Source: Myxococcales bacterium (GTDB lineage: Bacteria > Myxococcota_A > UBA9042 > JABWCM01). Taken from it: a stretch of 64,000 nucleotides of DNA. Below the pieces are notes generated by a model. That model was not told where the DNA came from and searched no databases. It worked only from the letters and a program-made list of their open reading frames with translations. Position numbers and translations under genes: made by a program. This document shows positions 4,846 through 53,534 of this stretch, one piece after another (positions within the stretch are counted from its first letter, which is position 1; every line of letters starts with the position of its first letter). The stretch is taken from contig JABWCM010000005.1 of assembly GCA_013360285.1 (NCBI GenBank), positions 2,149-66,148 of the forward strand. Reading direction: 5' to 3'.

Positions 4846-4922
<77 letters not shown>

Positions 4923-4963: not shown

Positions 4964-4994
4964 GTTGTGAGAAAGTCTACGGACGCGGGGTGGC

Positions 4995-5140
4995 TGGTGT
5001 TTGTAGATGAATTCCAGGCCCGGGCGGCCTTTGGCTGTCTCGCCCGTAAAAATCCCTGCGCCATATTCCCGATATGATTCAGGATTTTTTCTGACGAGAT
5101 CGATCCTCGAATTCCAACGCTGGTCAGAAGTGTGTGTTAA
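4995..5140. repeat. Partial copy of a ~160-bp MITE-like element (second copy at 19116-19278)
   Basis: A ~110-bp core is shared with the 19.1-kb copy: GGTGTTTGTAGATGAA...GGCGGCCTTTGGCTGTCTCGCCCGTAAAAATCCCTGCGCCATATTCCCGATAT.ATTCAGGATTTTTTCTGACGA. It includes the AAAAATCCCTG...CAGGATTTTT stem. It sits immediately 3' of the tRNA-fMet terminator. Confidence 0.6.
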
Positions 5141-19115: not shown

Positions 19116-19278
19116 AGGTGTGTGGTGTTTTTAGATGAAATTTGTGTCCTGGCCGCCTTTGGCCGCCTCGCCCGCAAAAATCCCTGCGGCATATTCCGGA
19201 TATTCCTCAGGATTTTTTCCGACGATTCGGCTCAAATTCGGCTGGCCAAAAATTCCCCTAAAAAACACCACACACCCA
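19116..19278. mobile_element. MITE-like element with perfect 16-bp terminal inverted repeats
   Basis: GGTGTGTGGTGTTTTT at 19117-19132 and its exact reverse complement AAAAACACCACACACC at 19263-19278. The internal ~110 bp match the copy at 4995-5140. It lies between the PEGA gene start and the metalloprotease gene stop. Confidence 0.7.
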
Positions 19279-27189: not shown

Positions 27190-27371
27190 GCTGGTCTCCT
27201 GGTTTATTGGTAGGTTTTGTGGGCAGCGTTGTCTGCTTTGCGCCACAATGTCAGCCGAACTTGCTCCGCAATTCTACGGTTGTTCAACAAACGGACAATG
27301 GATGCCACATGTCTTCAATTTGCGCAATATTTCGACACCCGTTCTTTTATTCCCAGTGCTGATGCTCGCTT

Positions 27372-33259: not shown

Positions 33260-36200
33260 CTAGTCTTTGATGCAGATAATACCAGCGAAGTAACGAACCG
33301 AGGTTGACTCGTTACCGCCTGAGGGCCCGTAGCCGGTACCGACGTTGTTGACGCTCAAGTCGGCGCCGTCAGCACTGGTCGTGTGAAGGTAAGTCGCCGT
33401 TGTTGGCGTTGTACCCTTTACACGCAGATACTCGCGGTATTTGGTGTAGTTTTCCCACTCGCTGTCGCCGCAGCAGGGTCCACCGCCGGGTGGGCAGTGA
33501 TTGCTTGCAGTACCCGATACCATTCCGTTTGGCGAACCCGAGAAGTTGTTGTCGGAATAATAACATTCGTTGATGTTCCGGTTGTTACGCCAGGACGCCT
33601 CATCGATACCACCGCATTTTCCGTCCGCACCTTCTTCGGTACCTTGGGCGTTACACGTCGTGCTGGGGTGATAGGTGTTACACGAAGTGCAGCCCTGAGC
33701 GAAGTTCTGCTGATCCGAAGGCAACATTTTGTCCAACCGCCATTCGCTCATCGTCGGCGTACCGGCATTGGAAGTCGAACCACAACCGGTGTTGCCGTAA
33801 GAGCTGCAACCCCAGGTCCAGGCGACGTTCCAGTTGTAGCCGGACCATCCGCATTGATTGTGATACGCTTTCTGGCCGGAAACAACGATGTTCCCGTTTG
33901 CCACCTTACGTGCGGCATACTCGGCTGCGGTTGCCCAGTGCCAACCGGTCGGGCATTGGTAATCATAAGTCGGGTTCCAAATCGTCGATTTGGCAATGGC
34001 ATACGCGATGTTGGGATCGGCCAAACTGACACGCCAACCGCCACAGTTATCCGATGTGTCCATCCAGGCCAATGGTCCGGCGGAAACATTTTTCTTACAC
34101 ATAATACCGGCAAACGAAGTGATGGTTTCGTCGGCGCCGGAATCAAGGAATGCGTCGTAGTTACCCGCATGTTTGTATCGACCGGTGACATTGGAGTCGG
34201 AGAACCGGAAATAAGTTCGTGACCGACCACGCCATACATAAGCCGACCATCCACACATGTCGTGATAGGCGTATGGACCTTGGTTGTAGTTGCCAAGTCC
34301 GGTTTTGAAACTCGCGTCCCCTTCCGCGGTGGTCATCCAGTGGTAACCATCTGGGCAAGTGTACACTTTGTTGGGGTTCCACAAGGTGCTTTTGGACACC
34401 ATGTAATACACATCCGGGTCAAAGAACGACTGACGGAAACCGCCGCAGTTGTCGCTGCGATCCCACCAATCCAGGGGGCCTTCAACGTAGTTGTCCTGGA
34501 TACAAACAATACCGGCAAAGCTCGTGAGAGTTCCATCCGTAGCGTGGGCCGACGTTTCATGGGACTCCGAGTGCAGGTAGCGGTTGTTGGTTGCCGAATC
34601 GGAGAACCGGAAGTACGTACGGGTTTGACCATGCCATACCTGGGCACTCCAACCGCATTGGTTCGAGTAGCGGTAAAACGAGCCGGTAGACGGTTGATTG
34701 TCCATGATCGCTTTGTATTCCGCCGAAGAAGCCCAGTGATAACCGGTCGGGCACTGGTAGGGATAGGTTTTATTCCAAACGTTTTGGCGCGCCACGGCGT
34801 ACCGGATTTGGGGTGCCCAAGAAGATTGGCGGAACCCTTTGCAGTCATCGTCGGTCAGCATCCAATCGGTCGTGCCCGGCTTCGGATACGGATCGTCGGT
34901 GATTTTCTTACAGATAATACCCGCAAAGTTAGCCGTTGTTGAGTTGGTCGTACCACGATATTGTTCGTAGTCGCCGGCGTGCATGTACCAGTTGTCAACG
35001 GCCGAGTTGGCAGTGCGGAAGAAATAACGGTTGAGACCCGACGCACCCCACACATAACCGTTCCAGCCGCAAGTACTGTAGTAGTTGTAATGGGTTGCGC
35101 TGTTGCTCGTGGTGAATGCCGCCTGAACGTCGGCGGTGGTTGCCCATACATAACCGGCGGGACAAGCATAGGGATAGGTTTTGTCCCATGTTCCCGACTT
35201 GGCAACGGCGAAGTAAAAACGCGGATCCCATTGGCTCTGGCGGAAACCACCGCAGTAATCGGTTTTATCCATCCAGTCGGTCGGGTCGGCTGCCGGATCC
35301 ACGTCGGCTTTGCAAACGATACCGGCGAAGTATTCGCTGCTTGCACCGTTGGCGATGTCGAACTGCACGGTGTAGGGATCGGCGTTACCCGCGTGTTTGT
35401 GGGCCAAAGTGGTCCCGTCTTTGAACGAATCGGCAAACCGGAAATGGTGGCGGGTCAAACCGTCGTTGAGTGCGCTGTAGCTGTTCCAGCCACACATATT
35501 CTGGTAAACACGGACACCTTCGTTGTTGGTCGTCTTAAACACCGAATAAGCTTCGGCGGTGGTTGCCCAATGATAACCGGTGGGGCATTGATAGTTGATG
35601 TTGGGGTCGTACCAGTTTTTGCGGGCAACGGCATAGTAGAATCGGCTATCAAACGTGCTTTGACGCCAACCATTACAACTGTCCTCGGTCAGCATCCAAT
35701 CCAGTGGCCCCGGAGTAGCCGTCGAGATACAGATAATCCCAGCGAAATCCTGAAGGGACATGGTGGTGCTGGTGGAGGTACCATCATACGACGTGGAGTC
35801 TTTATAAAAGCCGCTGTTCAGTTTGGAGTCGGAAGTACGGAACCAACGGCGATTTTTTCCACCCCACACCGTGCCGCTCCAACCGCATTGATTCTGGTAA
35901 ACCAACGCACCGGCTGCTTGTGGCCCGTTAAAAATCGCTTTCGCTTGATTTGTGGTCATCGGCACAAAGCCATTCGGGCAAGTATAGTTATAGTTCGGAT
36001 CCCACTGATTGGACTTCGCAACGGCATACCAAACGCGGGTATCCCACGTGCTTTGACGGAACCCACCACATTCATCGGTGGTGTCCATCCATGACGGCAT
36101 CAGATCCTGCCCACAGAGTTTGGGATTCGGTGTCGCAATGCCGCCGGAATATTCGCAGCGGTTACCCGGAGCGTAATAAACCCATTCACCGCCTGAAAGC

Positions 36201-37504
36201 ATGCTAAACGAGCTGGCGAGTTTCATGTGGGTGTCGGCCATGTATACATCCCGTTGGCAAACCTGCGTAGGCATCGCAGCGTTGCAAATGGCTTTTTGCA
36301 TCGATGGCGTCGCCGCGGCAAGGTTGTCCAACTTGTCGTTGAGGGTGTCTACTTGGTCCTGCGACGCGTAATAAGAAGCCGGTTGGCCACCTAAGGTCAA
36401 CGCGTCGGTCGAATCCCACACCGGTGAATAGTGGTATCCGTCCACCTTATCTGAGTCATTCGCGTAGTTAACCGTAATATTGTCGGGAATTTGAGCGTCC
36501 GTAGCAGTACCTGTCAACTCACTAAAGTTACTGATGGTCGCGTCATTTTGGCAGGTCCAGCCGGCGGCGCCATACTTCAGGATCTGGCCGGCCGCGCAGG
36601 TGGAGAGAAGACCAAACGACGTACCGGTCAGCGCCACACCGCCGTTGGCGGACGCGGTGTAAACCTGTCCAACGTTAATGCAGGTAGCGGTTCCATCCTG
36701 ATTGATCTTCATGATGGCGCCACCGGTGCAAGTCGTAGTGACCCGGCGTTGCACGTAGGTGTCGTCGATGTGGAAAATCGACCCGCTGGCGGTGAGCCCG
36801 GTACCCGCAAAGTATTGGGGACCTTCGTCATCGGTGCCGTCGGCAAAGTCCGACGGGATTCCGGTGAGTTGCGACCAGTCAACGGTGGCATTTCCGCTGT
36901 TCAGCAGGGTTTTCCAAGAGGTGCCGTCACAAAACGACAACATTCCCTGGTAATAACGGATGGTACCGGCAGCACCGGAGACGCACGCGTCGGTTGTTGG
37001 ACCCACTTGCAGGGTTCCAGACAGCGCCAAGGCATCTGCGTCCAGGTCGCCGACTTCGATGTCGTCGCCTACTTGCAGGAAGTCCGACGCGGGTACCCCG
37101 CCGAGAAACTGAGCGTCACCAGCGAGAACAGCAAATGGAACCGACAGAATTTTCTGTCGTGGCGCCAGGGCTTCGCCTTCAATAATGATCTCCAGCCAAA
37201 GGTCCGATTGGGACATCAACGCACTATCAAGTGCCGACGGTGTTCCACCAGACAAAACCAAACTCATGGTACCATCGGCCACCGCAACATCCTCAAACAC
37301 ACTGGATGTCCAGATTGCGCCGGCACCACCATCGGGCGCTGGGTAAATTTTTGCCTGAACCGTTGCCAGAACCCCGTCATAAGGGGATCCAGCCTGGTTA
37401 AGTTGCCCTGTATAGGGGACGGCCACTGGCACTGCCAAGGCCGGAGCCTGGAGCGCCATCATCAGGGCTAACGCTCCCAACAGTCGAAATCGAATCGAAC
37501 GCAT
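33260..37504 (-). CDS. Giant secreted protein (1,414 aa), paralog A: fibre-like N-terminal region, then six tandem ~125-aa Cys/Trp-rich modules and a Cys-rich C-terminus
   Basis: Signal peptide MRSIRFRLLGALALMMALQAPALA, with GGAGGTG upstream of the ATG at 37504. Six modules each begin D[WT]MxT[DE]DxC[GK]G[FW]RQS.[WF]D.R.[WY]YAV[AS][KR] and then contain YxCPxGYHWATT.E, QCGWSGY.W, YFRFSDS and FAGI[IV]C[IK]. About 60-75% identical to the 45928-50184 protein. Confidence 0.7.
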   Translation of the reverse strand: MRSIRFRLLGALALMMALQAPALAVPVAVPYTGQLNQAGSPYDGVLATVQAKIYPAPDGGAGAIWTSSVFEDVAVADGTMSLVLSGGTPSALDSALMSQSDLWLEIIIEGEALAPRQKILSVPFAVLAGDAQFLGGVPASDFLQVGDDIEVGDLDADALALSGTLQVGPTTDACVSGAAGTIRYYQGMLSFCDGTSWKTLLNSGNATVDWSQLTGIPSDFADGTDDEGPQYFAGTGLTASGSIFHIDDTYVQRRVTTTCTGGAIMKINQDGTATCINVGQVYTASANGGVALTGTSFGLLSTCAAGQILKYGAAGWTCQNDATISNFSELTGTATDAQIPDNITVNYANDSDKVDGYHYSPVWDSTDALTLGGQPASYYASQDQVDTLNDKLDNLAAATPSMQKAICNAAMPTQVCQRDVYMADTHMKLASSFSMLSGGEWVYYAPGNRCEYSGGIATPNPKLCGQDLMPSWMDTTDECGGFRQSTWDTRVWYAVAKSNQWDPNYNYTCPNGFVPMTTNQAKAIFNGPQAAGALVYQNQCGWSGTVWGGKNRRWFRTSDSKLNSGFYKDSTSYDGTSTSTTMSLQDFAGIICISTATPGPLDWMLTEDSCNGWRQSTFDSRFYYAVARKNWYDPNINYQCPTGYHWATTAEAYSVFKTTNNEGVRVYQNMCGWNSYSALNDGLTRHHFRFADSFKDGTTLAHKHAGNADPYTVQFDIANGASSEYFAGIVCKADVDPAADPTDWMDKTDYCGGFRQSQWDPRFYFAVAKSGTWDKTYPYACPAGYVWATTADVQAAFTTSNSATHYNYYSTCGWNGYVWGASGLNRYFFRTANSAVDNWYMHAGDYEQYRGTTNSTTANFAGIICKKITDDPYPKPGTTDWMLTDDDCKGFRQSSWAPQIRYAVARQNVWNKTYPYQCPTGYHWASSAEYKAIMDNQPSTGSFYRYSNQCGWSAQVWHGQTRTYFRFSDSATNNRYLHSESHETSAHATDGTLTSFAGIVCIQDNYVEGPLDWWDRSDNCGGFRQSFFDPDVYYMVSKSTLWNPNKVYTCPDGYHWMTTAEGDASFKTGLGNYNQGPYAYHDMCGWSAYVWRGRSRTYFRFSDSNVTGRYKHAGNYDAFLDSGADETITSFAGIMCKKNVSAGPLAWMDTSDNCGGWRVSLADPNIAYAIAKSTIWNPTYDYQCPTGWHWATAAEYAARKVANGNIVVSGQKAYHNQCGWSGYNWNVAWTWGCSSYGNTGCGSTSNAGTPTMSEWRLDKMLPSDQQNFAQGCTSCNTYHPSTTCNAQGTEEGADGKCGGIDEASWRNNRNINECYYSDNNFSGSPNGMVSGTASNHCPPGGGPCCGDSEWENYTKYREYLRVKGTTPTTATYLHTTSADGADLSVNNVGTGYGPSGGNESTSVRYFAGIICIKD

Positions 37505-37760
37505 CTCCGCACCTCCGCTACGTGGTTGGGGAACCTGCGCAGAATCCCCGGGGTTCACTGCACATATCACAGTCTCTCCGTACTCTCGCGTCACGGAAAG
37601 TTCAGAATAACTGTTTCTGCCCATTGATCCGGGATCTGCGAGCGCCAGTAATTTGCCGCCAGTCTTGGTACCCATCGAAACGCCTCTGCCAAATTGTCAA
37701 TAACACATCAAACACGCACCACGTCGTTCCGGCGCGGCTTTCACCGCACCCAGTTTTGGG

Positions 37761-40700
37761 CTACGGGCAAATCCCGCAGTCGGAAGGACAAAACGAACAA
37801 TACTCGTAACTTTCACAAATGCCGTTCCCGCAGTCATACAACTCGCAGGAATCAACACAGTTATTTCCGTTTGCATCGGGTGCAACCGGTAATTTTAGCG
37901 CATAGTAGATCACCAACTGCACGTCGATTACGTTCAAATTCGTATCACAGTTGAGATCGCCAATTGTTGTCGGTCCGATCAAACACGCTGGAAGCGGACC
38001 GGTGTCGCCGACAAGAAAATACAAAGCCAATAGTGATGTACATTGCGCATCGACTACGTTTGTCATGCCGTCGCCGGTGACATCGCCTTTGAAGAGGCAC
38101 GCGCAACCTTCATCGAAACTTTCGTCGCAGTCGTTATCGGAGTCATCACAGAACTCAAAGTTCCGTCCATGAATTTCGTCAACGATTCCACTACTATACA
38201 GGTCGAGAATATCTGCGGAGTCAAGCGCAAACTCGTAAAGTGCGATCTGATCAATGAGACCATTAAACACTCCACCGTTTCCGGTAAACCCGACAACAAA
38301 ATAGCCTTGAGTCGTAAGCAGTGAATCGCCGTCGCCAGGATCCGACGCACAAATTTCGCTACCATCAACGTAAAGTTTACAACCGTCCACCGACCCGCAG
38401 GAAAGGGCGACATGATGCCAAGCGTCATCGGCCACAACAGGTCCTTGACCGGAACACGTCGCTGTGCCGCCGGCAGTGGCAACGGAATAGGACAGTTTTC
38501 CTCCAGTGACGTTGAGTGTGCGGTCGTAACCACCCACTCCAAGTGGTGTGCCGGCCGACGCCATCATGATGCCACCGTTGGTGGCGGTTTTAATGTAGGC
38601 GGTCAACGTGAAGTTCGACTCAGGAATATTGGCGGTAGAGCTAAGATAACCGCCGAAACCGGATAACTTAAGCGCACCACCCTGATAGCCGCTGGCACTA
38701 AGTGTTGCCGGTGGAACCGCTGCGGCATTGTTTCCTGTGCCGGAGCCGTCGATGATTTGTGTGCTCAGCACATCGAATTCCCATAGCGCCACGGGCCCGG
38801 TGTTAACACACTCAATGCCTGTGATCGCCGAAACACAATCCAGTCTGCCGTCTTCACAGAGGTCGGCATCTCCGGCGTCGCACAATGTTCCGATGGTGGG
38901 ATCTTGTGTACCTACGCAGTTTCCAGCCACACATTGATCTGACAGTGTACAAACGTTGCCGTCGGTACACGGGCCAGGGGTCGCGGCATAAATGCACCCA
39001 CTGTTCACGTTGCAGGTGTCTGATGTGCACACGTTGTTGTCGTTGCAGACGGAGTTGTTGGGTGTGTATTGGCAGCCAAATGTTGGGCTGCAGCTATCGG
39101 TTGTGCAAGCGATGTTATCGACACACACCAAACCTTCGTTTTTGCATCCGACACCGGACTCACAACTATCCAGCGTACAAGCGTTGTTGTCATTGCAACT
39201 GGTGACGATTCCGGTCGGTGTGCAGATTCCGTCGATGCAGAACGCCAGTGCCACACAGGGGTCTCCATGGTCGCACGTAAAGAGGTTGTCGAAGTAGACA
39301 CACCCGGTTCCGGGTACACATACGTCGTTTGTGCAGGGATTGCCATCGTTACAATCGAGCGGCACATTAGGAAGGCAACCGAAGAACGAATCACATGTTG
39401 GAACGGTGCATATGTTGCCGTCTTCGCAGTCAGGCGCGGGGCCACTTACGCAGCCGATGTCTGAAATGCAGGTGTCGATCCCGGTGCAGAAATCCCCGTC
39501 TCCGCAGACTACTTCCGTACCCACACAGTAACCGGATACGCATTTGTCACTTTCTGTACAGGTATCGCCGTCATCGCACGCGGCTCCCGGCGTATCGCAA
39601 AATACTGCCGGTACACCGGTAAAGATGGTGCTGTCTTCGACTTCTACGATCAACGGTACCGCGCCGGGTCCGCTTGCTACTACCGACGTCGCGACGACCG
39701 GAGCTGGTTTGGATGGATCGATGTCGGCACTCAGCACAAAGGTCAGTGCCAAAAACACCGGATCACCATCTATTCCACCGGGAATTTCGTATGCGTCCGT
39801 AATCGGTGCGGTCGGTGTACCAAAATTCAGCATCGCGAGGGTTGCAGCTCCGCTCCAGTTGGAGGGGGTACCTGGAGCCATCAACAAGAGATGTCCCGAA
39901 GGCAGGGCAACCGATGGAGGGTAGGTTGGTACACATGTCTCGCATGCGGTCAGTTTTTGCGCTGTCAGCGAAGGAGGATAGGCGAGACTCAGTTGAAGGG
40001 CCGAAGCGTTTGGCTCAGGTTGTTGGCGGCGAGCTAGTTTCAACAAACAAACCGCAGTAGAACCGGCGTTTCCGCTGATTTGGCAAAGAACATTTTCGGT
40101 TACGTTGTAGCAGAACTCCGGAGCATAGATGCAGCCGGTTGCGCTGTTGCACTCCTCTTGTGTACACGGGTCGCCGTCGTCGCAAGAATGCGGCGGATAG
40201 GTACATCCCGCCAAGGGATCGCATGTATCATCCGTGCACAAGTCGTTGTCGTTGCATATAACAACCGTAGACGAATCACAGGCTCCGGCACTGTCACAGG
40301 TGTCGATGGTGCATTGATTGCCGTCTTCGCAATCAGGGGACGGGCCAGCCTGGCACCCGAGAGAGGGGAGGCAAAATTCGATCCCATTACAAAAGTCGCC
40401 ATCGTCACAACTGGTCGTGGTTCCGACACATACTCCGGCTACACACGTGTCGTTGGTGGTGCACAAGTCTAGGTCATCACAAGCGCTGCCGTTTTCTGCG
40501 CACAAGGTCGTGTACGCATCCGTTACGATAAGGTTGTTTTCGACCGTCGCTTTGAGCGGAACGGCTTGCGCGCCGGTGGCAATCACGTTGGTGGCTTTGA
40601 CAAACACTGGAGTCTCTGGTGCAACGTCTTGCTCCAGAGTGAAGAAGCCAACGAGATACTCGACGTCGCCTACCGTCGTCAGTCCGTCCACGTAGCCGGT

Positions 40701-43700
40701 TGTCAACGGGGAATCCGAACCGCTGAAATCCAGGGACAACAAATTTCCGGAACCACTCCAGGCGCCAGGTGTGCTCGGCGACAGCGCGACGGTATGGCCG
40801 GTAGAAAGTGGTGCGGGCGGAGTGGGGAACGCACAACCCGAGCACTCCTTAAACATGCTCAATGTTGCGGTATTCGGGTAACTTAGCGTCATTTGTATGG
40901 ACGAAGCAGATTCTTGATCAACTGTTCGTTTTGCAATACGAATTAGGCATTCCTGTACGCTGCCTGCGGACCCCGACAATTTACAAATCACATCTGTGTC
41001 GTTCGGGTCGTAACACGCCAGAGGCTGATGAATGCAGCCTTGCACTGGGTGGCACGAATCGGCTGTACAGTCGTTTCCGTCATCACACGACAGTCCTGGA
41101 TTGTTGATACATCCCACCGCGGGATTACAGGTGTCGGTGGTACAGGCGTCATTGTCATCGCAGTCGGTTGCTCCCGAAACAAAACACCCGGTTAAATCAT
41201 CACAGCTTTCGGTTGTGCACGGATCTGAATCAGCGCAGTTGGGAGATGGGCCAGACACACAACCAGCCAAGGAATCGCAGAGTTCAAGGCCATTGCAGAA
41301 CAGTCCGTCGTCGCATTCGATTTGTTGTCCAACACAAAACCCGGTAACACAAATGTCTCCGCTGGTGCACGCATTTCCGTCATCACATGGCATGCCGGAA
41401 GCAGCGCAGGAAACCGGATACTCGCCGGTTAAAATCACGCCATCCTCAATCGAAGCGTCGAGCGGATACGCTCCTGGTCCTGTGGCAAGAATCCCGGAGC
41501 CAACAACGGCAATCGCGTTGTCGAGTGCCACATTTTCGACCAGGGTAAAATGCGCAATTACAAATACGGGGTCACCCTGAATCGCGCCACCGTCCATGTA
41601 TGCCGATGTGATCGCGTCGTCTGGATTGGTGAGGTTCACAATTGCGAAAGTGCCGGTTCCAGACCAGGAAGCAAGGTTTGGTGGAGCGAAGCCGACGGTA
41701 TGTCCGTTCACGAGTGTATTCAGTGGTGGAATGGTGCCCGGACAACCGTCGCAGCGAGTAAGATAAGACAGGGTGGCGCCGTTTCCGTAACTTAACGTTA
41801 GTTGAAGTGCGGCGGCATTGTCTTCAGAAAAATCCCGTCGAGCGAGTCGCAGCGGGCATGTTACCGTTTCTCCGGCGAGACCGCTCAGTTCACACAACGT
41901 GTTCTGGTCATAGGTAGGGTCATAACAAAAGAGAGGAACATATTCGCAGCCCACCGAAGGTACGCAAATGTCGTCGGTACATGCATCTCCGTCGACACAG
42001 GTCGCCGAAATATCATCATAAACACAACCGATAGCCGAGTCGCAGGAATCGGCGGTACAAGCGTTGTTGTCATCGCATACAACTGTCGGTAGTGACACAC
42101 AACCCAGAACGGGGTCACATCCGTCGTTTGTGCACGCATCGCCGTCGTCACAATTGGGGACTGGTTGCGATTCACACCCTGTAGCCGCGTAACAGGACTC
42201 CAGCCCATTACAAAAGTCGCCGTCGTCACACGTTATCGGCGCACCGACGCACAATCCGCCGATACACAGGTCACCGCTGGTGCAAGCGTCGCCATCATCA
42301 CACGGAACCCCGCTGTCTTCGCACACTACGGTATACGGATTCGTTACGATGATCGTATCAATGACCTCGACGCTCATCGGTGATGCGGTGCTGTTCGCTG
42401 CGAGAATATCGTTCGCCACTACATGTAAGGGAGCGGAAGGTAGTATGTCGGACGCCAGCGTAAACCACGCGACAAACAAAGTCGCATCGCCGTTTACCGT
42501 GGGGCCAGTCATCCATGCGTCCGTTAGTGGATCCGTTTCTCCGGAGAGCGGAAGGGCCAAAATCGTTCCCGACCCGGACCAAGCGTCGAGTGTCGGCGGA
42601 TTTAGCCCCACGATCTGCCCGTGCGGAAGCGGCGAAGGGGGAACCGGCGCTGGGCAGGCTTCACACGCGGTAAAATGCGTGATTTCCGCTTCCGCCGGAT
42701 CGAACGTTAACGAAAGCTGTACACTGGATGCTGCGGACTGCGCCATCGCACCGCGCGCGAGCCGGACAATGCAAGGAACTGTAGCACCCGAGGTCCCCGA
42801 CAAGGAGCATACAGTGTTGGCGGGTACGGTTGGGTCATAACAAAACAGCGGCGTGTAAACACACTTTCCCGGTGCTTCGCAGATCTCGCTAGTACAAACA
42901 TCACCATCGTCGCATAGCCCGGCGATTTGGTTGTTTTGGCATCCGGTTGCAGGGTTACAGGTGTCTGTCGTACAGGTGTTGTTGTCGTCGCAGTCCACGA
43001 TGCCGCTGGGTAGACACCCGATGTCGTCATCACACAATTCGGTGGTGCACAAATCGCCATCGTTGCAATCGGGAACAGGACCGGACAGGCAGCCGCTCGA
43101 CGGCACACAGACTTCGATTCCGTTGCAGAAATCTCCGTCGTTACAGTTCACAGGTTGGCCCGCACACACACCGGCAACACATAAGTCTGACGTCGTACAG
43201 AGGTTGTTGTCATTACATGGGGCACCGGGTGTGGCACACGTTACCGTATTGTCACTTACAACAATAACCTTGTCTCCGTTTACGCTCGCCATCATCGGAA
43301 CAGCACCCGCACGGGCTACTGTGATATTGCCCGCACGAACATAAATGGGATTCGCTGCGTCGACATTTGCGGTCAGTTGAATGTTTGCGACCACAAACAT
43401 GGCTTCCCCGTTCAAAGTCCCGCCGTCGTAGTAGCCGTCCAACAGGGCGGTATCGGGGGCTCCAACATGAAGCGCTAGGATGGTGCCGTTCGTTGTCCAA
43501 GCAGACGGATTAATGGGGGATAACGACAGGATATGACCGCTGGACAGGGTTGTTGCAGGCGGAAACGTCGGCAAACAACCATCGCACTCCGTAAAGTGAG
43601 CTAGTGCGGTGTTTGACGGAAGTATCAGGCCAATTTGGGTGCTTACGGGTAACGACGTTGCAGCGTCTTTTCGCGCAAGTCGTATGGGGCAAGCCACCGT

Positions 43701-44819
43701 GCTGCCGGCGGTCCCCCAAAGTGAACACAGTGCGTCGTCCGGTACCGTAGGGTCAAAACAAAACAGCGGCGTATGAGAACAACCCGCTGGGCCCCCGCAA
43801 ACGTCGGCGGTGCATACGTCTCCGTCGTCACAGACCGAAGCATCGGGTGTGTATGTACAACCTGTAACCGGGTTGCAACTGTCTATTGTACATGTGTCGT
43901 TGTCATCGCAGACCGTCGGCGTCCCAAAATGACAGCCGGCAGCAGGATTACACAGGTTTGCAGTGCACGGAAGGCCGTCGTCACAGGTAGCTGGGGTCCC
44001 CTGCGCGCAGGAACCGCCCGAACAATAATCAATGCCGTCACAAAAATCGCCGTCATCACAACTTACAGCTATACCAATGCAGTAGCCCGCAAGACAGGTG
44101 TCTCCTGTGGTGCAGGGATCGCTGTCGTTACATGGCGCACCATTAAAAGGGCACGCCGGCGGAAGAAGAGTGGTAATAATTCCATCTGTGGTTTTCGTAA
44201 TTAGCGGAATGGCGCCTGTGCCACTTGCGACCGCACCGGTAACGACAACCAACTTCGGGTTTGCAGCATCGACGGTTTCGCCCAACACAAAGTTTGCTAC
44301 CAGCACGACTGGATCGCCAACCAGCAAACCATTGTCCATGTGCGCATTTGACAAAGGGGGGGCATCAGGATCAAAGCTCAGCAGCAACAGGGTGCCGGTA
44401 CCGGGCCAGTCGTTCGGATCATCGGGGGACAGTGACACGATCTGCCCCGTATCAATGGAGATAGCCGGAGGAAATGAGACTGGGCAACCCTCACATTCAG
44501 TAAACGACTGTAGGCTAAGACCTTGAGGAAAATCGAATTCAAGTTGGAGTGCTATAGCGCCGTCTTGGCTCGGATTGGCGCCTGCAACACGGATGGGGCA
44601 GGAAACGGTCGAGCCGGCAGGCCCGCTGATTTCGCACAAGACGTTCGGTTCAATTGCTATGGCGTTAGCGGCACAAAAAACAACCGATGCGGCGACCATC
44701 GTGGCGACCGCCGTGTGGCAGTGGGCCAAATGCCGACCGTTTTCTGCGGCTTGGCGCCCTACCCATCGACACCGATTGACGGTGCTGGCAATGATGTTGA
44801 CAGCGGCATTCGCCGACAT
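37761..44819 (-). CDS. Giant secreted scaffoldin-like protein (~2,350 aa): 8 cohesin-like modules alternating with CDDGxxCTxDxC repeats, then LamG and a C-terminal dockerin pair
   Basis: Eight ~165-aa modules (LCEISGPAGSTVSCPIRVAG...ALQLEFDFPQGLSLQSFTEC...) resemble type-I cohesin (G.TV.VPV.....G.I...DF...YD...L). Each is followed by 6-7 copies of a ~24-aa repeat C[DN]DG[DN].CT.D.C.P..GC. A LamG-like region (LWEFDV...AWHHVALS...LYVDG) follows. The C-terminal dockerin segments are GDVTGDGMTNVVDAQ and GDLNCDTNLNVIDVQ. The start is placed at the ATG at 44819, with AGGAAAGG 6 nt upstream. The alternative is 44699. Confidence 0.65.
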   Translation of the reverse strand: MSANAAVNIIASTVNRCRWVGRQAAENGRHLAHCHTAVATMVAASVVFCAANAIAIEPNVLCEISGPAGSTVSCPIRVAGANPSQDGAIALQLEFDFPQGLSLQSFTECEGCPVSFPPAISIDTGQIVSLSPDDPNDWPGTGTLLLLSFDPDAPPLSNAHMDNGLLVGDPVVLVANFVLGETVDAANPKLVVVTGAVASGTGAIPLITKTTDGIITTLLPPACPFNGAPCNDSDPCTTGDTCLAGYCIGIAVSCDDGDFCDGIDYCSGGSCAQGTPATCDDGLPCTANLCNPAAGCHFGTPTVCDDNDTCTIDSCNPVTGCTYTPDASVCDDGDVCTADVCGGPAGCSHTPLFCFDPTVPDDALCSLWGTAGSTVACPIRLARKDAATSLPVSTQIGLILPSNTALAHFTECDGCLPTFPPATTLSSGHILSLSPINPSAWTTNGTILALHVGAPDTALLDGYYDGGTLNGEAMFVVANIQLTANVDAANPIYVRAGNITVARAGAVPMMASVNGDKVIVVSDNTVTCATPGAPCNDNNLCTTSDLCVAGVCAGQPVNCNDGDFCNGIEVCVPSSGCLSGPVPDCNDGDLCTTELCDDDIGCLPSGIVDCDDNNTCTTDTCNPATGCQNNQIAGLCDDGDVCTSEICEAPGKCVYTPLFCYDPTVPANTVCSLSGTSGATVPCIVRLARGAMAQSAASSVQLSLTFDPAEAEITHFTACEACPAPVPPSPLPHGQIVGLNPPTLDAWSGSGTILALPLSGETDPLTDAWMTGPTVNGDATLFVAWFTLASDILPSAPLHVVANDILAANSTASPMSVEVIDTIIVTNPYTVVCEDSGVPCDDGDACTSGDLCIGGLCVGAPITCDDGDFCNGLESCYAATGCESQPVPNCDDGDACTNDGCDPVLGCVSLPTVVCDDNNACTADSCDSAIGCVYDDISATCVDGDACTDDICVPSVGCEYVPLFCYDPTYDQNTLCELSGLAGETVTCPLRLARRDFSEDNAAALQLTLSYGNGATLSYLTRCDGCPGTIPPLNTLVNGHTVGFAPPNLASWSGTGTFAIVNLTNPDDAITSAYMDGGAIQGDPVFVIAHFTLVENVALDNAIAVVGSGILATGPGAYPLDASIEDGVILTGEYPVSCAASGMPCDDGNACTSGDICVTGFCVGQQIECDDGLFCNGLELCDSLAGCVSGPSPNCADSDPCTTESCDDLTGCFVSGATDCDDNDACTTDTCNPAVGCINNPGLSCDDGNDCTADSCHPVQGCIHQPLACYDPNDTDVICKLSGSAGSVQECLIRIAKRTVDQESASSIQMTLSYPNTATLSMFKECSGCAFPTPPAPLSTGHTVALSPSTPGAWSGSGNLLSLDFSGSDSPLTTGYVDGLTTVGDVEYLVGFFTLEQDVAPETPVFVKATNVIATGAQAVPLKATVENNLIVTDAYTTLCAENGSACDDLDLCTTNDTCVAGVCVGTTTSCDDGDFCNGIEFCLPSLGCQAGPSPDCEDGNQCTIDTCDSAGACDSSTVVICNDNDLCTDDTCDPLAGCTYPPHSCDDGDPCTQEECNSATGCIYAPEFCYNVTENVLCQISGNAGSTAVCLLKLARRQQPEPNASALQLSLAYPPSLTAQKLTACETCVPTYPPSVALPSGHLLLMAPGTPSNWSGAATLAMLNFGTPTAPITDAYEIPGGIDGDPVFLALTFVLSADIDPSKPAPVVATSVVASGPGAVPLIVEVEDSTIFTGVPAVFCDTPGAACDDGDTCTESDKCVSGYCVGTEVVCGDGDFCTGIDTCISDIGCVSGPAPDCEDGNICTVPTCDSFFGCLPNVPLDCNDGNPCTNDVCVPGTGCVYFDNLFTCDHGDPCVALAFCIDGICTPTGIVTSCNDNNACTLDSCESGVGCKNEGLVCVDNIACTTDSCSPTFGCQYTPNNSVCNDNNVCTSDTCNVNSGCIYAATPGPCTDGNVCTLSDQCVAGNCVGTQDPTIGTLCDAGDADLCEDGRLDCVSAITGIECVNTGPVALWEFDVLSTQIIDGSGTGNNAAAVPPATLSASGYQGGALKLSGFGGYLSSTANIPESNFTLTAYIKTATNGGIMMASAGTPLGVGGYDRTLNVTGGKLSYSVATAGGTATCSGQGPVVADDAWHHVALSCGSVDGCKLYVDGSEICASDPGDGDSLLTTQGYFVVGFTGNGGVFNGLIDQIALYEFALDSADILDLYSSGIVDEIHGRNFEFCDDSDNDCDESFDEGCACLFKGDVTGDGMTNVVDAQCTSLLALYFLVGDTGPLPACLIGPTTIGDLNCDTNLNVIDVQLVIYYALKLPVAPDANGNNCVDSCELYDCGNGICESYEYCSFCPSDCGICP

Positions 44820-45137
44820 GTTGCCCTTTCCTTGCGCCGTTTCTGGGTCACCTGAACCCACCGCGGCACCTAAACCGTCATTAAGCCAACATTTGGACAA
44901 GACCAGGTGGCTTGTCGCCGTTTCTCCGCGCGTACCCTGCGTTTTCTTCGCAGCTTTCGGTGCTGACGCACCCAAAGACGCTGTCGGGTCTGGAGGCTTA
45001 AGTTAGCGTGGGTCCGCTAAATGCTTGTTCGCTTTGGTTTTGCTACAACATTTCTGACGGAGCCTACGTGATATCGTAATGCACGGAACTACGAGCGAGC
45101 TGAGTAAACGAGCGCACTCGCGCAAATATCCATTCGC

Positions 45138-45773
45138 TTAGGGAATTTCTTGAGGAATTCCTTCGCTCTTCGGTTTTAGTTCAAATTCTGCGCCACCGTC
45201 TGGGCTGGCAGACGATCCTGTCGTCGCGGCACCGGTTCCGATTGCGCGTAAGCTAAACCCACCCCCGGTTGACTCACCGGTGGAATAAATCGGCAACACC
45301 ATCGGCAACGGGACATACCCGAGTGGTTGACACGGTGCCGCACAACCAGTGCCGGACGGGTCCACTCCGCTCGAAAGCGGCTGATTGAGTGCCAATGTGA
45401 TCAGAATGTTTACGTCGATGACGTTGACTGTTCCGGAGCAGTTCACATCTGCTTTGGACAGGGGTTGCGCCGCACAGGCGGGAGCTGCGCCAACTTGTCC
45501 ACCCAATTCCCATAGGGACAATATGATCCCACAATGGGCATCAATTACGTTGACATTGCCGTCGCCATTAATGTCGCCAAGTGGGCTGAGAATGACCCCG
45601 TTGAACGGGTTTACGCACTCGTTGGCGGCGGCCGTGCCGGCAACGGCGGTCACGAGTGCAATGCAAAATAGTCCTACGCCTGTCGCTGTGAAACCGCGAC
45701 GCTCACTGTATCTCGTGGCGCCACTGGCACCGTTTCGGCCATTCATATTGTGTGCACCCATTTGCGCTTTCAT
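45138..45773 (-). CDS. Small secreted dockerin-repeat protein
   Basis: TM/signal GVGLFCIALVTAVAGTAAA. Two Ca-binding dockerin-type segments, GDINGDGNVNVIDAHCGIILSLW and ADVNCSGTVNVIDVNILITLAL. GGGAGG lies 5 nt upstream of the ATG at 45773. Confidence 0.55.
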   Translation of the reverse strand: MKAQMGAHNMNGRNGASGATRYSERRGFTATGVGLFCIALVTAVAGTAAANECVNPFNGVILSPLGDINGDGNVNVIDAHCGIILSLWELGGQVGAAPACAAQPLSKADVNCSGTVNVIDVNILITLALNQPLSSGVDPSGTGCAAPCQPLGYVPLPMVLPIYSTGESTGGGFSLRAIGTGAATTGSSASPDGGAEFELKPKSEGIPQEIP

Positions 45774-45927
45774 TGAAACCTCCCGAACGATATAACCTCG
45801 TACGGTCATTGATGGCATTTTTTCGGACGCCCGGTACCGGGTGAGAACTTTACTTTATGGAATTGGAGCTGTTCGTGCTGGGTCGACTTCGCTGTCGGCC
45901 CAGCACCTACGTTGGAACAACGAATCA

Positions 45928-48900
45928 CTACAGTTTGATGCAGACAATTCCGGCGAACTGGTCCTGCCCGGTGTAGTTTTCCACGGGCTGATTATCGTTG
46001 TCGGCGGCATCTTTGGCCGTATTGTTGGTTTTGGAATCAGCGAATCGGAACCAACGACGTGTAAGTGTACGTCCCTGAATTTCGCTGTTACCGCAACACA
46101 CGCCGTTGTAGCAATGGTCGCCATACGTACCTGAGACAATGTTCTTCGGAGTTCCAGAAACGCTGTTTGGCGACCAGTAGCAGTCATTTAACTCCTGACC
46201 ATTTCGCCACCGGGGCTCGTCAATTCCGCCGCATTTTCCATCCGGACCGGAAGTGGTTCCGGAAGACTGGCACGTGCTGGTGTAATTTTGACATTGTGTA
46301 CAGCCAAACGCGAAGTCCGACGCTGCGGTCATGATTTGTCCCATAGTCGGTGACGGAGATGCGGTGCCCGAACCACAGCCGGCCTGGCCGTAGGAGCTGC
46401 ATCCCATCTGCCACAGTGGGTTCCAGTTGGAACCGCTCCAACCACATTCGCCCCAGTAGGTGTTGGCTGGGAAACTCGGGTTGTTGTTGAAAGCAACTTC
46501 GCCGGAATTGGCCCACTTATAACCCGCGGGACAAGCATAGGTACGGTCACGGTCCCACACGGAACTTTTTGATACCACGTACAATACGTTCGGGTGGGAA
46601 GATGAAGTACGCATGCCACCACAGTTATCGGAGGTGTCGACCCAGTCGAGAGCACCGGCGGCTGCGTCTTTCATACACAGAATGCCCGCAAAGTTAGATG
46701 TGGTGTCGGTAATATTAGCAGTGATATATGCTTCGGGTTCGTCCACGTGTTTGTATCGCAGCGTCAAGTTGGAGTCGGCGAAACGGAAGTAGTGACGGAG
46801 TAGTCCGTGCCATTGATTGTTTGGCACCGTGTAGTCTTGTGATGTTGTCCAACCACACTCTCCGCGATAAGAACGCTGCGCTTCGTTGATGATGTTTGCG
46901 GTGTTGTATTCTGCACCAAGGCGGAACACCACGTTTGCTTCGTTGGTCGTCATCCAATGGAATCCCGGCGGACAAACATAGGTTTCGGGGTTGTTTTTGG
47001 CCCACGTGTTGTTCCGGGCGATTGCGTAGTAGACCCGCGGATCCCACGCCGACTGACGAAACCCGCCGCAGTTGTCGGTTTTGTCCATCCATGCGGTTTG
47101 ATCAGCAGGTGGGGAGTTGGAAAGACATACGATACCCGCAAAGCTGGTCATCGGAGTCGAGCCAAAGGTCGAATAGAGGGTTGGTTCGGCGTGCGCCGCG
47201 TCGAAATATCGTTTTGTGCCGGAATCGCCTGTGTTCCAGGTATCGGAGAAAAAGAAATACTGACGATAACGATTTTCCCAGTTGTAAGCGCTCCAACCAC
47301 ATTGGCCATGATATTTGTAATAGTTTGTGCTGCTGCCGACCATCAAGTTGTCGACTTCGGTGGAAGCCGCCCAGTGGTAACCCGTGGGACATGTGTACGT
47401 ATAACCCGGCTTGAAAATGTTTTGTCGAGACACAGCAAAACGAATCCGCGCATTCCAGGTAGACTCACGGAAACCTTTGCAGTCGTCGCTGGTTTCCATC
47501 CACTCCGTGGTTCCTACCGGCGGATAAGCAGGCGTTCCTGTTTTTTTGCAGACAATTCCTGCAAATTCACTGGTTGCGCCGGACGTGGTGCCTCGGTAAG
47601 AATCGGCATCTGCGGCGTTCATGTAACGATTGGTTCCGGTGACGTCCGGTTTGATTCGGAAATAAACACGTTGTACGCCGTTCCAATACTGGCCGCTTGT
47701 TGAAGACCATCCGCATTGGTTGCCATATACACGTTGGTCAGACGAGGGGTTGGACGTGGTGAATGCAGCGTCAATTTCGGCGCCCGTCGCCCACGTATAG
47801 CCTGCCGGACATTGGTAGTCCAAGGCTGGGTTCCAAGTCGTAGATTTCGACACCGCGAAGTAGAAGTTGGGGTCCCATGAACTCTGACGGAAACCGCCGC
47901 AGTAGTCGCTGGTATCCATCCAGTCGGTCGGAGATACGGTCGGATCTTCTTTCATGCAGACAATGCCGGCAAATTCGGTCAGGGTTTTGTCATCGAACTG
48001 AACGGTATACATTTCACCGTTGCCCGAATGTTTGTATGCGCCGGTCGCCAATCCCTCGAACGAATCTTTGAAACGGAAGTAGTACCGGTTCATGCCGTTT
48101 GCCTGCATGTCGTAGCCGGTCCAGCCACATTTGCCGTTGTAAACCGTTCCCTGATTCAACGTCGTTTTGAACACGGCGTACGCTTCTGCGGTGGTAGCCC
48201 ATTTGAAGCCCGTGGGACATTGATAATTGAAGCCATATTCATACACGTTACGACGAGCAACCGCATAGTAGAACCGGCTGTCAAACTCACTTTGTTTGAA
48301 ACCGCCACAAAGGTCCTCGGTGAGCATCCAGTCCAATGGACCTGCCGGCGTTTTGGAGATACACACCATTCCAGCGAAGTTGGTCAACGTGCCGGATGTG
48401 GGCAACCCAAATCCGTCTGCGTGTGTGGAGTCTTTATAATAGTACTGTGACTTGCCTGAATCTTTGTAGCGGAAGTAGGTTTTGGTTTGGTTTTTCCAAA
48501 CGTTGCTCTGCCAGCCGCATTGGTTTTGGTAGGTTTTAGCACCGGCATTGTTTGCGCCTTTAAAAATCTGCTTCGCTTGTTCGACGGTCATTGCGTCGAA
48601 CCCTGCCGGACACTCGTAGTTGTAGGCCGGATCCCAGACGTTGCTTTTGGAGACCGCGTACCAAACCCGCGTATCCCAAGTGCTTTGACGGAATCCACCA
48701 CACAGGTCGGTGGTGTCCATCCAGGACGGCATCAGGTCCTTCGCACATTGTTCCGGAGCAGGTGTCTCGATTCCACCTTGGTATTCGCAGCGATCTTCCG
48801 AAGCGTTGTAGCTCCATGTGCCGCCGGACAACAACATCATCGAATACGGATCCATGGATGGATCGGCACCCGCCATGTGAACACTCCGTTTGCAGACTTT

Positions 48901-50184
48901 TGTCGGCAACGAATTCTGGCACAGGGCTGTTTTTTCGGCCGGCGTGAGCGCTGGGTCCGGAAATCCACCGGTTGCCGCGTCGATCGCTGAAATGGCCGAC
49001 GATGTGGCAAATTGATCGGGGGCGAGGCCTTGTAGGGTTTCCGAATCGGTGGAGTCCCACACCGGACTATAATGATGGCCGTCAACTGTGTCGGCGTCTT
49101 TGGACCAGCCTACGGTCAGCGCGTCGGAAATCTGACCGTCCGACATGCTGCCACCGATGGAACCGAAGGTTGTGTTGTTGGTGTCGTTGGCGCAGTTCCA
49201 TGCCCCAGCAGACCACTTCAACAACTGGCCGGTCGTACACGGCTTCAGACCAAGCGCGTTGCCGGACAACTGCATGCCGCCGCTGGCGCTCACCGTATAA
49301 ACATTGCCGACCGGTGCGCATACCGCTGTTCCGTCGGAATTGATGGTGCGCATCGCTTGACCGCTGGGACATTCGGTGCCCACACGCCGTTGGAATTGCG
49401 CCACGTCAACATAAAACCCGGCACCTTGAGCGTAGAGCCCGATGCCTGGATAGTACAGATACTCCGTGGAGTCATCCGTTCCGTCGGCGATGGTCCCCGG
49501 AATGTTTCCGACGTCGTTCCAATTCAACGAGGTCAGCGGTGCCGCCGGGTCGATTTCTTGCCACGACGCACCGTCGCAGTACTCGAGGAGTTTCGAGGCG
49601 GATACGTACCGAACAACGCCGGCGTTGTCCATGTCACAGTCGGTGTCGCCCCAGCCGATTTTGGCGCCTGCGTTGACACTTGCGCTTCCGCTGGCAGTGA
49701 CCGCTTGCACCGTTGCGGAATCTCCCATCTGCAGGAAGTCGGCCGGCATCATGCCGTCGAGTGCCTGTGCGTCGTGGGCTTCTACCGCGAACGGTTGAGA
49801 GCGTAGTCGCTGACGAGGCAGCAACTTATTGCCGTCAATGGTGAATTCAATCCACAAGTCGTTCGATGTCAGCGCATCTGTTCCGAATTGAGGAGTGCCG
49901 CCCGTCAAAACTAGGCTAAATCGACCGTCGGCAACTGGAATGTCTTCCAAGGTCGAGGACATCCATACCAACCCGGTATCTCCCGAAGAAGATGCCACGT
50001 TGAATATACGAACCTGGACCGCTGAAAGTACGCCGGTGTAATCGGCGTCATTCAACTGGAGCCGGCCGAAGTACGGCATTTGTGCCGGTGCGGCGAAAGC
50101 TGGGACAGTGGTTCCGAGCGCAAGCGCTGCGGCTAGGACATAAAGGTAAGGATTGCGACTACCGCGCTTCTTCATCTGCATCAC
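45928..50184 (-). CDS. Giant secreted protein (1,418 aa), paralog B of 33260-37504
   Basis: Same architecture as paralog A: signal peptide, VPYTGQL/MPYFGRL N-terminal region, six D.M.T.D.CGGFRQS modules, and a shared C-terminus CGGIDE..WRN......CY...N..SG.P...VSGT...HC.....CCG.SE. Confidence 0.7.
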   Translation of the reverse strand: MMQMKKRGSRNPYLYVLAAALALGTTVPAFAAPAQMPYFGRLQLNDADYTGVLSAVQVRIFNVASSSGDTGLVWMSSTLEDIPVADGRFSLVLTGGTPQFGTDALTSNDLWIEFTIDGNKLLPRQRLRSQPFAVEAHDAQALDGMMPADFLQMGDSATVQAVTASGSASVNAGAKIGWGDTDCDMDNAGVVRYVSASKLLEYCDGASWQEIDPAAPLTSLNWNDVGNIPGTIADGTDDSTEYLYYPGIGLYAQGAGFYVDVAQFQRRVGTECPSGQAMRTINSDGTAVCAPVGNVYTVSASGGMQLSGNALGLKPCTTGQLLKWSAGAWNCANDTNNTTFGSIGGSMSDGQISDALTVGWSKDADTVDGHHYSPVWDSTDSETLQGLAPDQFATSSAISAIDAATGGFPDPALTPAEKTALCQNSLPTKVCKRSVHMAGADPSMDPYSMMLLSGGTWSYNASEDRCEYQGGIETPAPEQCAKDLMPSWMDTTDLCGGFRQSTWDTRVWYAVSKSNVWDPAYNYECPAGFDAMTVEQAKQIFKGANNAGAKTYQNQCGWQSNVWKNQTKTYFRYKDSGKSQYYYKDSTHADGFGLPTSGTLTNFAGMVCISKTPAGPLDWMLTEDLCGGFKQSEFDSRFYYAVARRNVYEYGFNYQCPTGFKWATTAEAYAVFKTTLNQGTVYNGKCGWTGYDMQANGMNRYYFRFKDSFEGLATGAYKHSGNGEMYTVQFDDKTLTEFAGIVCMKEDPTVSPTDWMDTSDYCGGFRQSSWDPNFYFAVSKSTTWNPALDYQCPAGYTWATGAEIDAAFTTSNPSSDQRVYGNQCGWSSTSGQYWNGVQRVYFRIKPDVTGTNRYMNAADADSYRGTTSGATSEFAGIVCKKTGTPAYPPVGTTEWMETSDDCKGFRESTWNARIRFAVSRQNIFKPGYTYTCPTGYHWAASTEVDNLMVGSSTNYYKYHGQCGWSAYNWENRYRQYFFFSDTWNTGDSGTKRYFDAAHAEPTLYSTFGSTPMTSFAGIVCLSNSPPADQTAWMDKTDNCGGFRQSAWDPRVYYAIARNNTWAKNNPETYVCPPGFHWMTTNEANVVFRLGAEYNTANIINEAQRSYRGECGWTTSQDYTVPNNQWHGLLRHYFRFADSNLTLRYKHVDEPEAYITANITDTTSNFAGILCMKDAAAGALDWVDTSDNCGGMRTSSSHPNVLYVVSKSSVWDRDRTYACPAGYKWANSGEVAFNNNPSFPANTYWGECGWSGSNWNPLWQMGCSSYGQAGCGSGTASPSPTMGQIMTAASDFAFGCTQCQNYTSTCQSSGTTSGPDGKCGGIDEPRWRNGQELNDCYWSPNSVSGTPKNIVSGTYGDHCYNGVCCGNSEIQGRTLTRRWFRFADSKTNNTAKDAADNDNQPVENYTGQDQFAGIVCIKL

Positions 50185-53400: not shown

Positions 53401-53534
53401 GGAGTGCACAAATCGTCTTCGACAACAACGGCACATGCGGCGGACATCGTGGTTGTGAACAGAATCAACAACGACATCTGACGGAATTGGGTTACGATTT
53501 TAAACGGATTCCGTTTTACTGACGTTTGCGTCAT
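50463..53534 (-). CDS. Secreted Cys-rich repeat protein (1,023 aa) with two C-terminal DUF1566 (Lcl C-terminal-type) domains
   Basis: Acidic linker, then ~14 CDDxNxCTxDxC-type repeats identical in style to those of the scaffoldin-like protein. The C-terminal DUF1566 motifs are WRVPSWHELWTL...IVCV and WRLPTISELASL...YWSSTTLDVFPSQAWVAYQYYGGTGFATKTSSAHVRCV. Confidence 0.65.
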   Translation of the reverse strand: MTQTSVKRNPFKIVTQFRQMSLLILFTTTMSAACAVVVEDDLCTPNQKSCIDGNPYQCSSTGEEFVALTPGCQLGETCIAGKCVVEEDTNIKDDVSIDVANPDVTTPEDTQSGDQLGDVEGSDLISDTGGDTATVADSTDDTGEDEFDDTAHNEDTTGDAATTCDPSDCDDNNVCTTEECNEQGDCVSIPATGQPCDDGDICSANEVCNKGTCRSDTPTICEDNNPCTEDSCVPEVGCSFEAITGVPCDDGEPCTESDKCTRGLCMGTWLFDCNDENPCTKDLCDPEVGCAYEPLNGGLCDGPGLCLAGGVCENSECTGGKPKTCDDQNPCTADTCLDTMGCSYIAVDGEVCEDNNPCTVEDLCNNGVCTGGKPKTCEDSDECTENGCDPTSGCTFVEISGTACNDDDLCTTGDICKNGACVGQESVNCNDDNPCSNDSCKNGVCEYVAVENGAACDDGDACTTDTVCFENICAGGTPLDCSDGNPCMETPCDVDTGCATPIPLTGTLCDDNNLCTTSESCQNGTCEALTTLVCNDNEVCTFDECDPLLGCFFVAAQSSLSCDDGNPCSAPDHCEFGKCKPGTPTVCNDNEACTADTCSVTKGCVFTPILGACTDNNACTVGDSCKVGKCVPGTTLVNCNDGLACTIDNCDSETGKCAFNPKPMDAQPCTAVGSATGVCDTGMCIALPHPLPSGVTWIPAGQPNGLPFAMPWPPDTGQQKCYSASQPDLVLICNPPTEQCGLTPGCGQDGQLNLEEDWFSPNRMQKLTLTGVSGQVWADNETGLFWSPVSTAKGSYSSATTICTNYGDLIDGQPWRVPSWHELWTLIHFGKHDPALVHPAATSASSSDLLWTNTQAFAGSRWTVDAYDGRLVAISDETAKLGIVCVNGQGQPQTVPHRFFTAKIAETTVAFDPWTDLLWQTDPGPADSWTNALSHCENLTDADLDLWRLPTISELASLQNNVYDGAIDTTVFGSAANKQYWSSTTLDVFPSQAWVAYQYYGGTGFATKTSSAHVRCVVSNPVF

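Follow-up and report, generated by a model that had tools for sequence, protein, structure and literature searches.

Anciently duplicated six-module proteins, candidate fibre-type adhesins, in an uncultured member of the Myxococcota

The closest described counterparts of the proteins considered here are the MAT fibres of Bdellovibrio, surface-displayed trimers with an invariant N-terminal domain, thought to lie at the predator surface, and with exchangeable adhesive tips that include a C-type lectin fold (Caulton et al. 2024, PMC10769870). Two other known systems invite comparison, namely the C-type-lectin-like superfold (CTLD, Link, APT, the D-domains of invasin and intimin, and Lcl_C/DUF1566) and the cohesin-dockerin pairing of the cellulosome. 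Here we compare with them a locus of a Myxococcales bacterium, contained in a 64,000-nucleotide stretch of contig JABWCM010000005.1 (hereafter the window), in which two minus-strand genes, called A and B, each encode a large secreted protein ending in six tandem four-cysteine modules. A and B are the outcome of an ancient gene duplication; they have diverged to silent-site saturation and are under purifying selection. Taken as a whole, the locus is probably best explained by old paralogs that encode secreted multivalent adhesins.

The likeness to the Bdellovibrio fibres consists of a partial, sub-cutoff match of the N-terminal domain of A and B. A single trimeric domain forms the tip of a MAT fibre; A and B instead have a tandem row of six disulfide-bonded modules that probably fold independently of one another, and no S74 or beta-helix segments were detected in A and B, which are known as monomer predictions only. 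With the C-type-lectin-like superfold the module was compared by predicted structure, no sequence profile matching it, and A and B differ from the calcium-dependent C-type lectins in lacking the EPN/QPD and WND pair. The locus resembles the cellulosome in that both genes between A and B encode a Dockerin_1 domain, but A and B themselves lack a dockerin, and a cohesin is detectable nowhere in the locus. A and B would be a variant of the fibre-type adhesins whose building block is an undescribed domain shared across kingdoms. Their features are listed below (aa, amino acids).

33260..37504, minus strand: gene A, 1414 aa; the open reading frame (ORF) is open to 37675, and the start at 37504 is preferred
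37136..37435, minus strand: A, N-terminal beta-sandwich of ~100 aa (aa 24-123), weakly MAT_N-like; predicted local distance difference test score (pLDDT) 61-87 per 10-residue block
36098..37135, minus strand: A, tail-fibre-like region of ~350 aa with short repeated motifs and invariant columns; monomer model mostly at pLDDT <50
35705..36097, minus strand: A module 1, placed by sequence comparison and profile
35282..35704, minus strand: A module 2, the modelled one, pLDDT 93.7
34871..35281, minus strand: A module 3
34475..34870, minus strand: A module 4
34073..34474, minus strand: A module 5
33263..34072, minus strand: A module 6, interrupted by an insert of ~118 aa that has 10 cysteines (about 33473-33826); profile positions 2-80 and 72-126 are matched separately
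45928..50184, minus strand: gene B, 1418 aa from GTG
48730..50184, minus strand: B, signal peptide, N-terminal beta-sandwich and fibre-like region; Bdello_MAT_N at 29.6 bits
46651..48729, minus strand: B modules 1-5 (48337-48729, 47929-48336, 47509-47928, 47098-47508 and 46651-47097)
45931..46650, minus strand: B module 6, with a Cys-rich insert of ~98 aa (about 46123-46416)

The original prediction, made from the DNA sequence alone, described two ~1,400-aa paralogous ORFs that are collinear along their full length, and both are present at the coordinates given, on the minus strand: BLASTP aligns A and B in a single end-to-end segment pair (1229 bits, E=0, far above chance), with 666 of 1432 positions identical (47%) and 6% gaps. 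The identity of 60-75% that it gave for the modules was too high. The measured values lie between 45 and 60% (46-60% per module): modules 1 to 6 are at 60, 60, 56, 50, 46 and 47%, the N-terminal part at 44%; 70-80% is reached in single 50-aa windows only. Modules 1-4 and 6 of A each have the B module of the same position as their closest counterpart, and module 5 of A is 46% identical to B module 5 versus 48-49% to B modules 2 and 3. Since position-matched modules are the most alike between A and B, the six-fold internal repeat is older than the gene duplication. The number of cysteines per region (10, 4, 4, 4, 4, 4 and 14) is the same in both proteins.

In the DNA, blastn of A against B returns one 1.1-kb match at 65% identity and short scraps, the codon alignment is 55% identical, and the longest exact word that the two genes share is 20 nt, lies off the diagonal and joins non-equivalent modules. 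Where the residue is conserved, four-fold degenerate sites agree in 33% of cases versus 27% expected from composition, and the proportion of synonymous differences, pS, is saturated at 0.73. Neither blastn of 28-45.9 kb against 45.9-58 kb nor blastn of the window against itself revealed duplicated DNA outside the two coding regions, so that the flanks are not duplicated and the segmental duplication proposed earlier does not hold for the DNA. No gene-conversion tract between A and B was visible, the best 150-nt window being 78% identical. Copies this diverged offer no substrate for homologous recombination, so exchange between them is not supported, and as a duplication A and B are an ordinary, old pair without ongoing exchange. 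We hold this evolutionary description, of old paralogs kept by selection, with high confidence.

The ratio of nonsynonymous to synonymous substitution rates (dN/dS) is unreliable between A and B because dS is saturated, and pairs of closer relatives in related genomes were used in place of the A-B estimate. In unsaturated pairs of relatives, dN/dS per region is 0.03-0.56. These values are below 1 throughout and therefore indicate purifying selection, without module-wide positive selection; the dN/dS per module suggested with the original prediction is thus informative among closer relatives and saturated between A and B.

A search of 5.8 billion clustered proteins gave 13 full-length family members including A and B, all from Myxococcota metagenome bins, and the relatives are 41-48% identical to A; every one of the 13 has exactly six modules. 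Altogether the six-module architecture is found in about 20 proteins, from Myxococcota only and usually duplicated. A narrow scan of genome contigs with a single peptide pattern found one species, and is no measure of domain distribution. At three loci (L001, L002 and L004), two adjacent copies of the fibre gene are directly preceded by a gene for a Dicty_CTDC-repeat protein of ~1,430 aa, and the genomes of these loci also hold a solo copy (L003, L005 and L007). In neighbour-joining bootstrap trees (200 replicates), from which the Dicty_CTDC-repeat proteins of L001 and L004 were left out, A and B were sisters in 96.5% and 100% of the replicates, and P0007/P0010 and L002_a/L002_b were also sisters within their own genomes. 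Since these sister pairs fall within their own genomes, duplication has recurred independently in different lineages. Judged from the sequences, the duplication that gave A and B appears to have arisen within their own lineage, in a small family restricted to Myxococcota.

Both proteins follow one plan. A Sec signal peptide opens an N-terminal part of ~470-485 aa, followed by six modules of ~130 aa that begin with WMDTSDxCGG and end with FAGIVC, and the cysteine count is even in every region. In gene A, a GGAGG lies 8-12 nt upstream of the ATG at 37504, which opens the signal peptide MRSIRFRLLGALALMMALQAPALA. The start of gene B is most likely the ATG at 50175 (1415 aa), which matches the public annotation P0005; this is NCBI HUU55_01235 of a Myxococcales bacterium metagenome-assembled genome.

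The module itself measures 125-135 aa and has four invariant cysteines, to which module 6 adds ten in an insert of 98-118 aa. AlphaFold, given 40 module sequences, predicted module 2 of A with a pLDDT of 93.7 and a predicted template modelling score (pTM) of 0.89, as a mostly beta fold with one short helix. Scans of A, B and single modules against Pfam, PHROGs and NCBIfam gave no family match for the module, and Pfam at E<=10 gave none for Lectin_C, Xlink, Lcl_C or FGE-sulfatase, the only match being a chance-level Poxvirus_B22R_C (E 0.026). PDB sequences compared with two hidden Markov model profiles of the module yielded nothing usable, and Foldseek of the module model against PDB and viral models nothing significant. 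The candidate structural neighbours of the model, of which the best are binding domains, comprise the APT domain of aerolysin and pertussis toxin, Link modules (LYVE-1, aggrecan and TSG-6), invasin and intimin, many CTLDs, the C-terminal domain of Legionella Lcl, the Bdellovibrio MAT tip Bd2740, variable proteins of diversity-generating retroelements (DGRs), and FGE. In our reading the module constitutes a new family of domains, with a core that is distantly lectin- or Link-like, and belongs to no defined lectin family.

Conservation within the module extends over its first 30 positions and is seen again in the last strand, and the conserved core comprises CPxGYHWAT, QCGW, RxYFRFSDS, KHAG and FAGIVC. 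Variation, between A and B as well as across the family, is concentrated in two stretches before the last strand (profile positions 52-67 and 93-118), and entropy within orthologous modules is below the overall entropy.

When 1.84 billion representatives were searched exhaustively with the profile, the module turned up in 481 proteins (clusters) at E<=1e-3, from bacteria and eukaryotes. Outside the 13 members, each protein has one or two copies, and in 45 of 119 single-copy proteins the module ends <=10 residues from the C-terminus. In bacterial carriers it is joined to Dicty_CTDC, DUF4215 or Big_9 repeats, and at the C-terminal end of some Dicty_CTDC-repeat proteins it takes the place that Lcl_C has in a 1023-aa protein of the window. 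The named carriers are eukaryotic: giant proteins from Saprolegnia, Aphanomyces and Pythium, along with one Pelomyxa protein; they include Saprolegnia parasitica SPRG_09820/KDO24430, Aphanomyces invadans H310_02520, Pythium oligandrum TMW60407 and Pelomyxa schiedti KAH3759230 (the oomycete and Pelomyxa carriers are P0019-P0023, P0033 and P0170, of 900-6,700 aa). These oomycete and Archamoebae proteins have the same domain by sequence, with whole-protein E values of 1e-40 to 1e-62 against the module profile and the same motifs, but they differ from A and B in having 1-2 copies, at most weak cadherin-like matches elsewhere and no fibre-like N-terminus. No paper was found in the literature on the oomycete locus tags. 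The motifs kept across kingdoms are CPxGYHWA, GW, RxxFRFxDS, KHAG and FAGIVC, and some members are without the cysteines. Dicty_CTDC repeats are likewise common to bacteria and protists, and inter-kingdom transfer of the module is possible. The module could be given a family entry of its own, and a solved structure and ligand would extend annotation to several hundred proteins, the giant oomycete surface proteins among them.

In the N-terminal part, Bdello_MAT_N (NF053851) is the sole NCBIfam match of both A and B, at 20.8-23.8 bits in A and 29.6 bits in B. Unrelated fibre-like proteins of ~950 aa with the same N-domain match this profile equally weakly, and a word-indexed profile search with the N-domain found 9 short unnamed fragments only and is uninformative on MAT membership. 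The following ~350-aa region of A has the motifs IPxDFADGTDD, QRRVxxxCxxG, GQILKY..W.C and DGYHYSPVWDSTDA; these invariant short motifs recall phage tail fibres. In the AlphaFold monomer model of residues 24-470 (447 aa), the first ~100 residues form a confident beta-sandwich and the rest is mostly at pLDDT <50, the stalk region having a mean pLDDT of 49.6 (alignment of 13 sequences). Since its confidence is limited to those ~100 residues, this N-terminal model was left out of the fold search.

We propose that the N-terminal domain of A and B would anchor the protein at the cell surface, as has been proposed for the Bdellovibrio MAT fibres, and that the middle region of ~350 aa would form an oligomeric stalk. 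The six modules would be lectin-like binding units, whose conserved core may hold the fold and perhaps a common site, and whose two variable loop regions may tune the ligand of each module. Anchor, stalk and six binders would thus add up to a multivalent adhesin that holds on to the surface of prey, of a substrate or of a matrix; for adhesin function in itself we see the chances as about evenly balanced. Both copies may have been retained through divergence in binding, not through sequence exchange, and they probably act with the neighbouring Dicty_CTDC-repeat proteins, given that the gene neighbourhood is conserved. Such a six-module fibre system may parallel the prey-recognition fibres of Bdellovibrio. 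The earlier suggestion that the pair reflects a diversified binding specificity is plausible in view of the lectin-like modules, the repeated duplication and the loop variation, but it is unproven, and against it dN/dS is <1 wherever it can be measured.

Several observations weigh against old paralogs acting as multivalent adhesins. The Bdello_MAT_N match is far under the curated cutoff (20.8-29.6 versus 60 bits), spans profile positions 115/125-160 of 162 only (the last ~45), and is found in 3 of the 13 family members at E<=0.01. The low-confidence stalk model fits an oligomer but equally a poor 13-sequence alignment. The sugar-binding pair EPN/QPD and WND is absent from A and B, neither of which has an EPN or QPD; a lone WND at residue 222 of B lies in the N-terminal region, outside the modules. 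No signal emerged when hhalign was used to compare the module profile with Lcl_C of the neighbouring protein (probability 0.1%). The dN/dS values <1 provide no positive sign of adaptive diversification. Finally, the sister grouping of A and B could be long-branch attraction, since A and B are about as similar to each other (49%) as A is to other members (43-50%). On the side of function, strong conservation across kingdoms of polar residues (R, D, S, K and H) could mark a catalytic or common-ligand site instead of diversified binding.

The genes around A and B bear on larger assemblies in which the two proteins might take part.

50463..53534, minus strand: gene directly upstream of B, 1023 aa, with a Dicty_CTDC stalk and two C-terminal Lcl_C (DUF1566) domains
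45138..45818, minus strand: first intervening gene, an ORF of 226 aa (called as 211 aa) with a hydrophobic N-terminus and Dockerin_1 (27.5 bits)
37761..44975, minus strand: second intervening gene, "scaffoldin-like", 2,404 aa; gene callers start it at about 44819

With B and A, these genes form a minus-strand run in the order 50463-53534, B, 45138-45818, 37761-44975, A. The original prediction had the copies flanking the scaffoldin-like gene, and the 2,404-aa repeat gene does lie between them, but so does the gene of the 226-aa dockerin protein. The 2,404-aa protein contains six super-repeats of ~305 aa, whose starts are at aa 114, 417, 723, 1028, 1331 and 1631, each with a beta-rich module of ~165 aa, without a Pfam match, followed by Cys-rich Dicty_CTDC repeats; behind them come Laminin_G_3 and a C-terminal Dockerin_1 (23.1 bits versus a cutoff of 22.9). 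A Dicty_CTDC gene lies directly upstream of the fibre gene or genes in the window and at L001 (5455-9774), L002 (813-5078) and L004 (5428-9726). The Dicty_CTDC gene of L002 is missing from the public annotation. The six-module fibres and their conserved pairing with Dicty_CTDC proteins point to an unstudied surface system of uncultured Myxococcota. In its widest form this would be an undescribed prey- or substrate-capture apparatus, in which a new extracellular binding family common to Myxococcota and protists is built into six-module arms on a MAT-like base, with the Dicty_CTDC and dockerin proteins as scaffold, a picture that we consider doubtful as a whole.

Somewhat less likely again is that A and B are parts of a cohesin-dockerin-type surface assembly, a scaffold-and-arms machine formed with the repeat protein and the Dicty_CTDC proteins. 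It would account for the Dockerin_1 domains of the 226-aa protein and of the C-terminus of the 2,404-aa protein, for the six beta-rich super-repeats beside the six modules of A and B, and for the Dicty_CTDC gene that adjoins fibre genes in four genomes. However, A and B have no Pfam dockerin match or dockerin-like motif, and the beta-rich modules have no match to Cohesin even at E up to 10, so that the dockerins of the locus are without a recognisable cohesin partner. In the relatives, moreover, the fibre genes lie side by side and no such gene separates them, and the match of six with six is perhaps a coincidence.

The conserved polar residues are the sole hint that the module might be an enzyme or a fixed-ligand domain, and A and B processive or multivalent extracellular enzymes. 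We find this improbable: the module matches no enzyme family, its best structural neighbours are binding domains, and six tandem copies in a C-terminal place after stalk-like repeats are typical of binding modules. It is no easier to see in A and B structural proteins of a matrix or surface layer, without specific target recognition. They are large, secreted, Cys-rich repeat proteins amid other secreted repeat proteins, as such a role would have it, but each module position is conserved across the family as an orthologue of its own, which suggests a distinct role per module.

That A and B are a recent segmental duplication, serving as a substrate for recombination and domain shuffling as the original prediction had it, is refuted at this locus and has very little left in its favour. 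The genes are collinear and lie in direct orientation ~8.4 kb apart, and the family can pass through a young-tandem stage, as shown in a related genome by L002_a/L002_b, a young tandem pair with 91% aa identity and a dS of 0.23-0.55. Against this stand the 55% DNA identity of A and B, the 20-nt off-diagonal word, the saturated silent sites without a conversion tract, the unduplicated flanks and a gene order that is the same in seven assemblies: six independent short-read assemblies all have CHRD / MMPL / Dicty_CTDC-Lcl_C / B / dockerin / repeat protein, and one further independent assembly has repeat protein / A / downstream genes. That the two genes are targets of a DGR, which commonly diversifies proteins with a C-type-lectin fold, is hardly conceivable, as self-blastn found no template/variable repeat pair in the 64-kb window and the scanned ORFs contain no reverse-transcriptase domain. 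Old paralogs encoding secreted multivalent adhesins thus remain our preferred explanation.

Short-read assemblies tend to break inside the 2,404-aa gene. At the B locus, five independent Logan assemblies (L009-L013) all begin 69-90 nt upstream of the B start codon, within the spacer that separates the Dicty_CTDC/Lcl_C gene from B, and this common break could be due to strain variation or to hard-to-assemble sequence. Promoter and terminator scans gave chance-level results only, and Tandem Repeats Finder reported nothing in 33-54 kb.

Downstream of A, on the minus strand, are genes for a 314-aa protein (30401-31345) with weak similarity to NusG/UpxY-type antiterminators and for a 398-aa protein (31503-32699) with a domain like the SecDF P1 head. 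Upstream of the cluster, 53570-56314 encodes an MMPL/RND transporter and 56581-60021 a CHRD-domain protein. The products of these four genes may be partners of the secreted repeat proteins in export or regulation.

Elsewhere in the window, an intergenic direct repeat of ~110 nt is found on the plus strand at 4989-5097 and 19117-19225, 82% identical between the copies, the first of which lies immediately 3' of a tRNA-Met (4846-4922). The repeat is without an Rfam family match and contains the hairpin AAAAATCCCTG...CAGGATTTTTT. At 26901-27071, a 72-nt unit occurs in tandem with 91% identity, inside or beside ORFs at 26587-27487.

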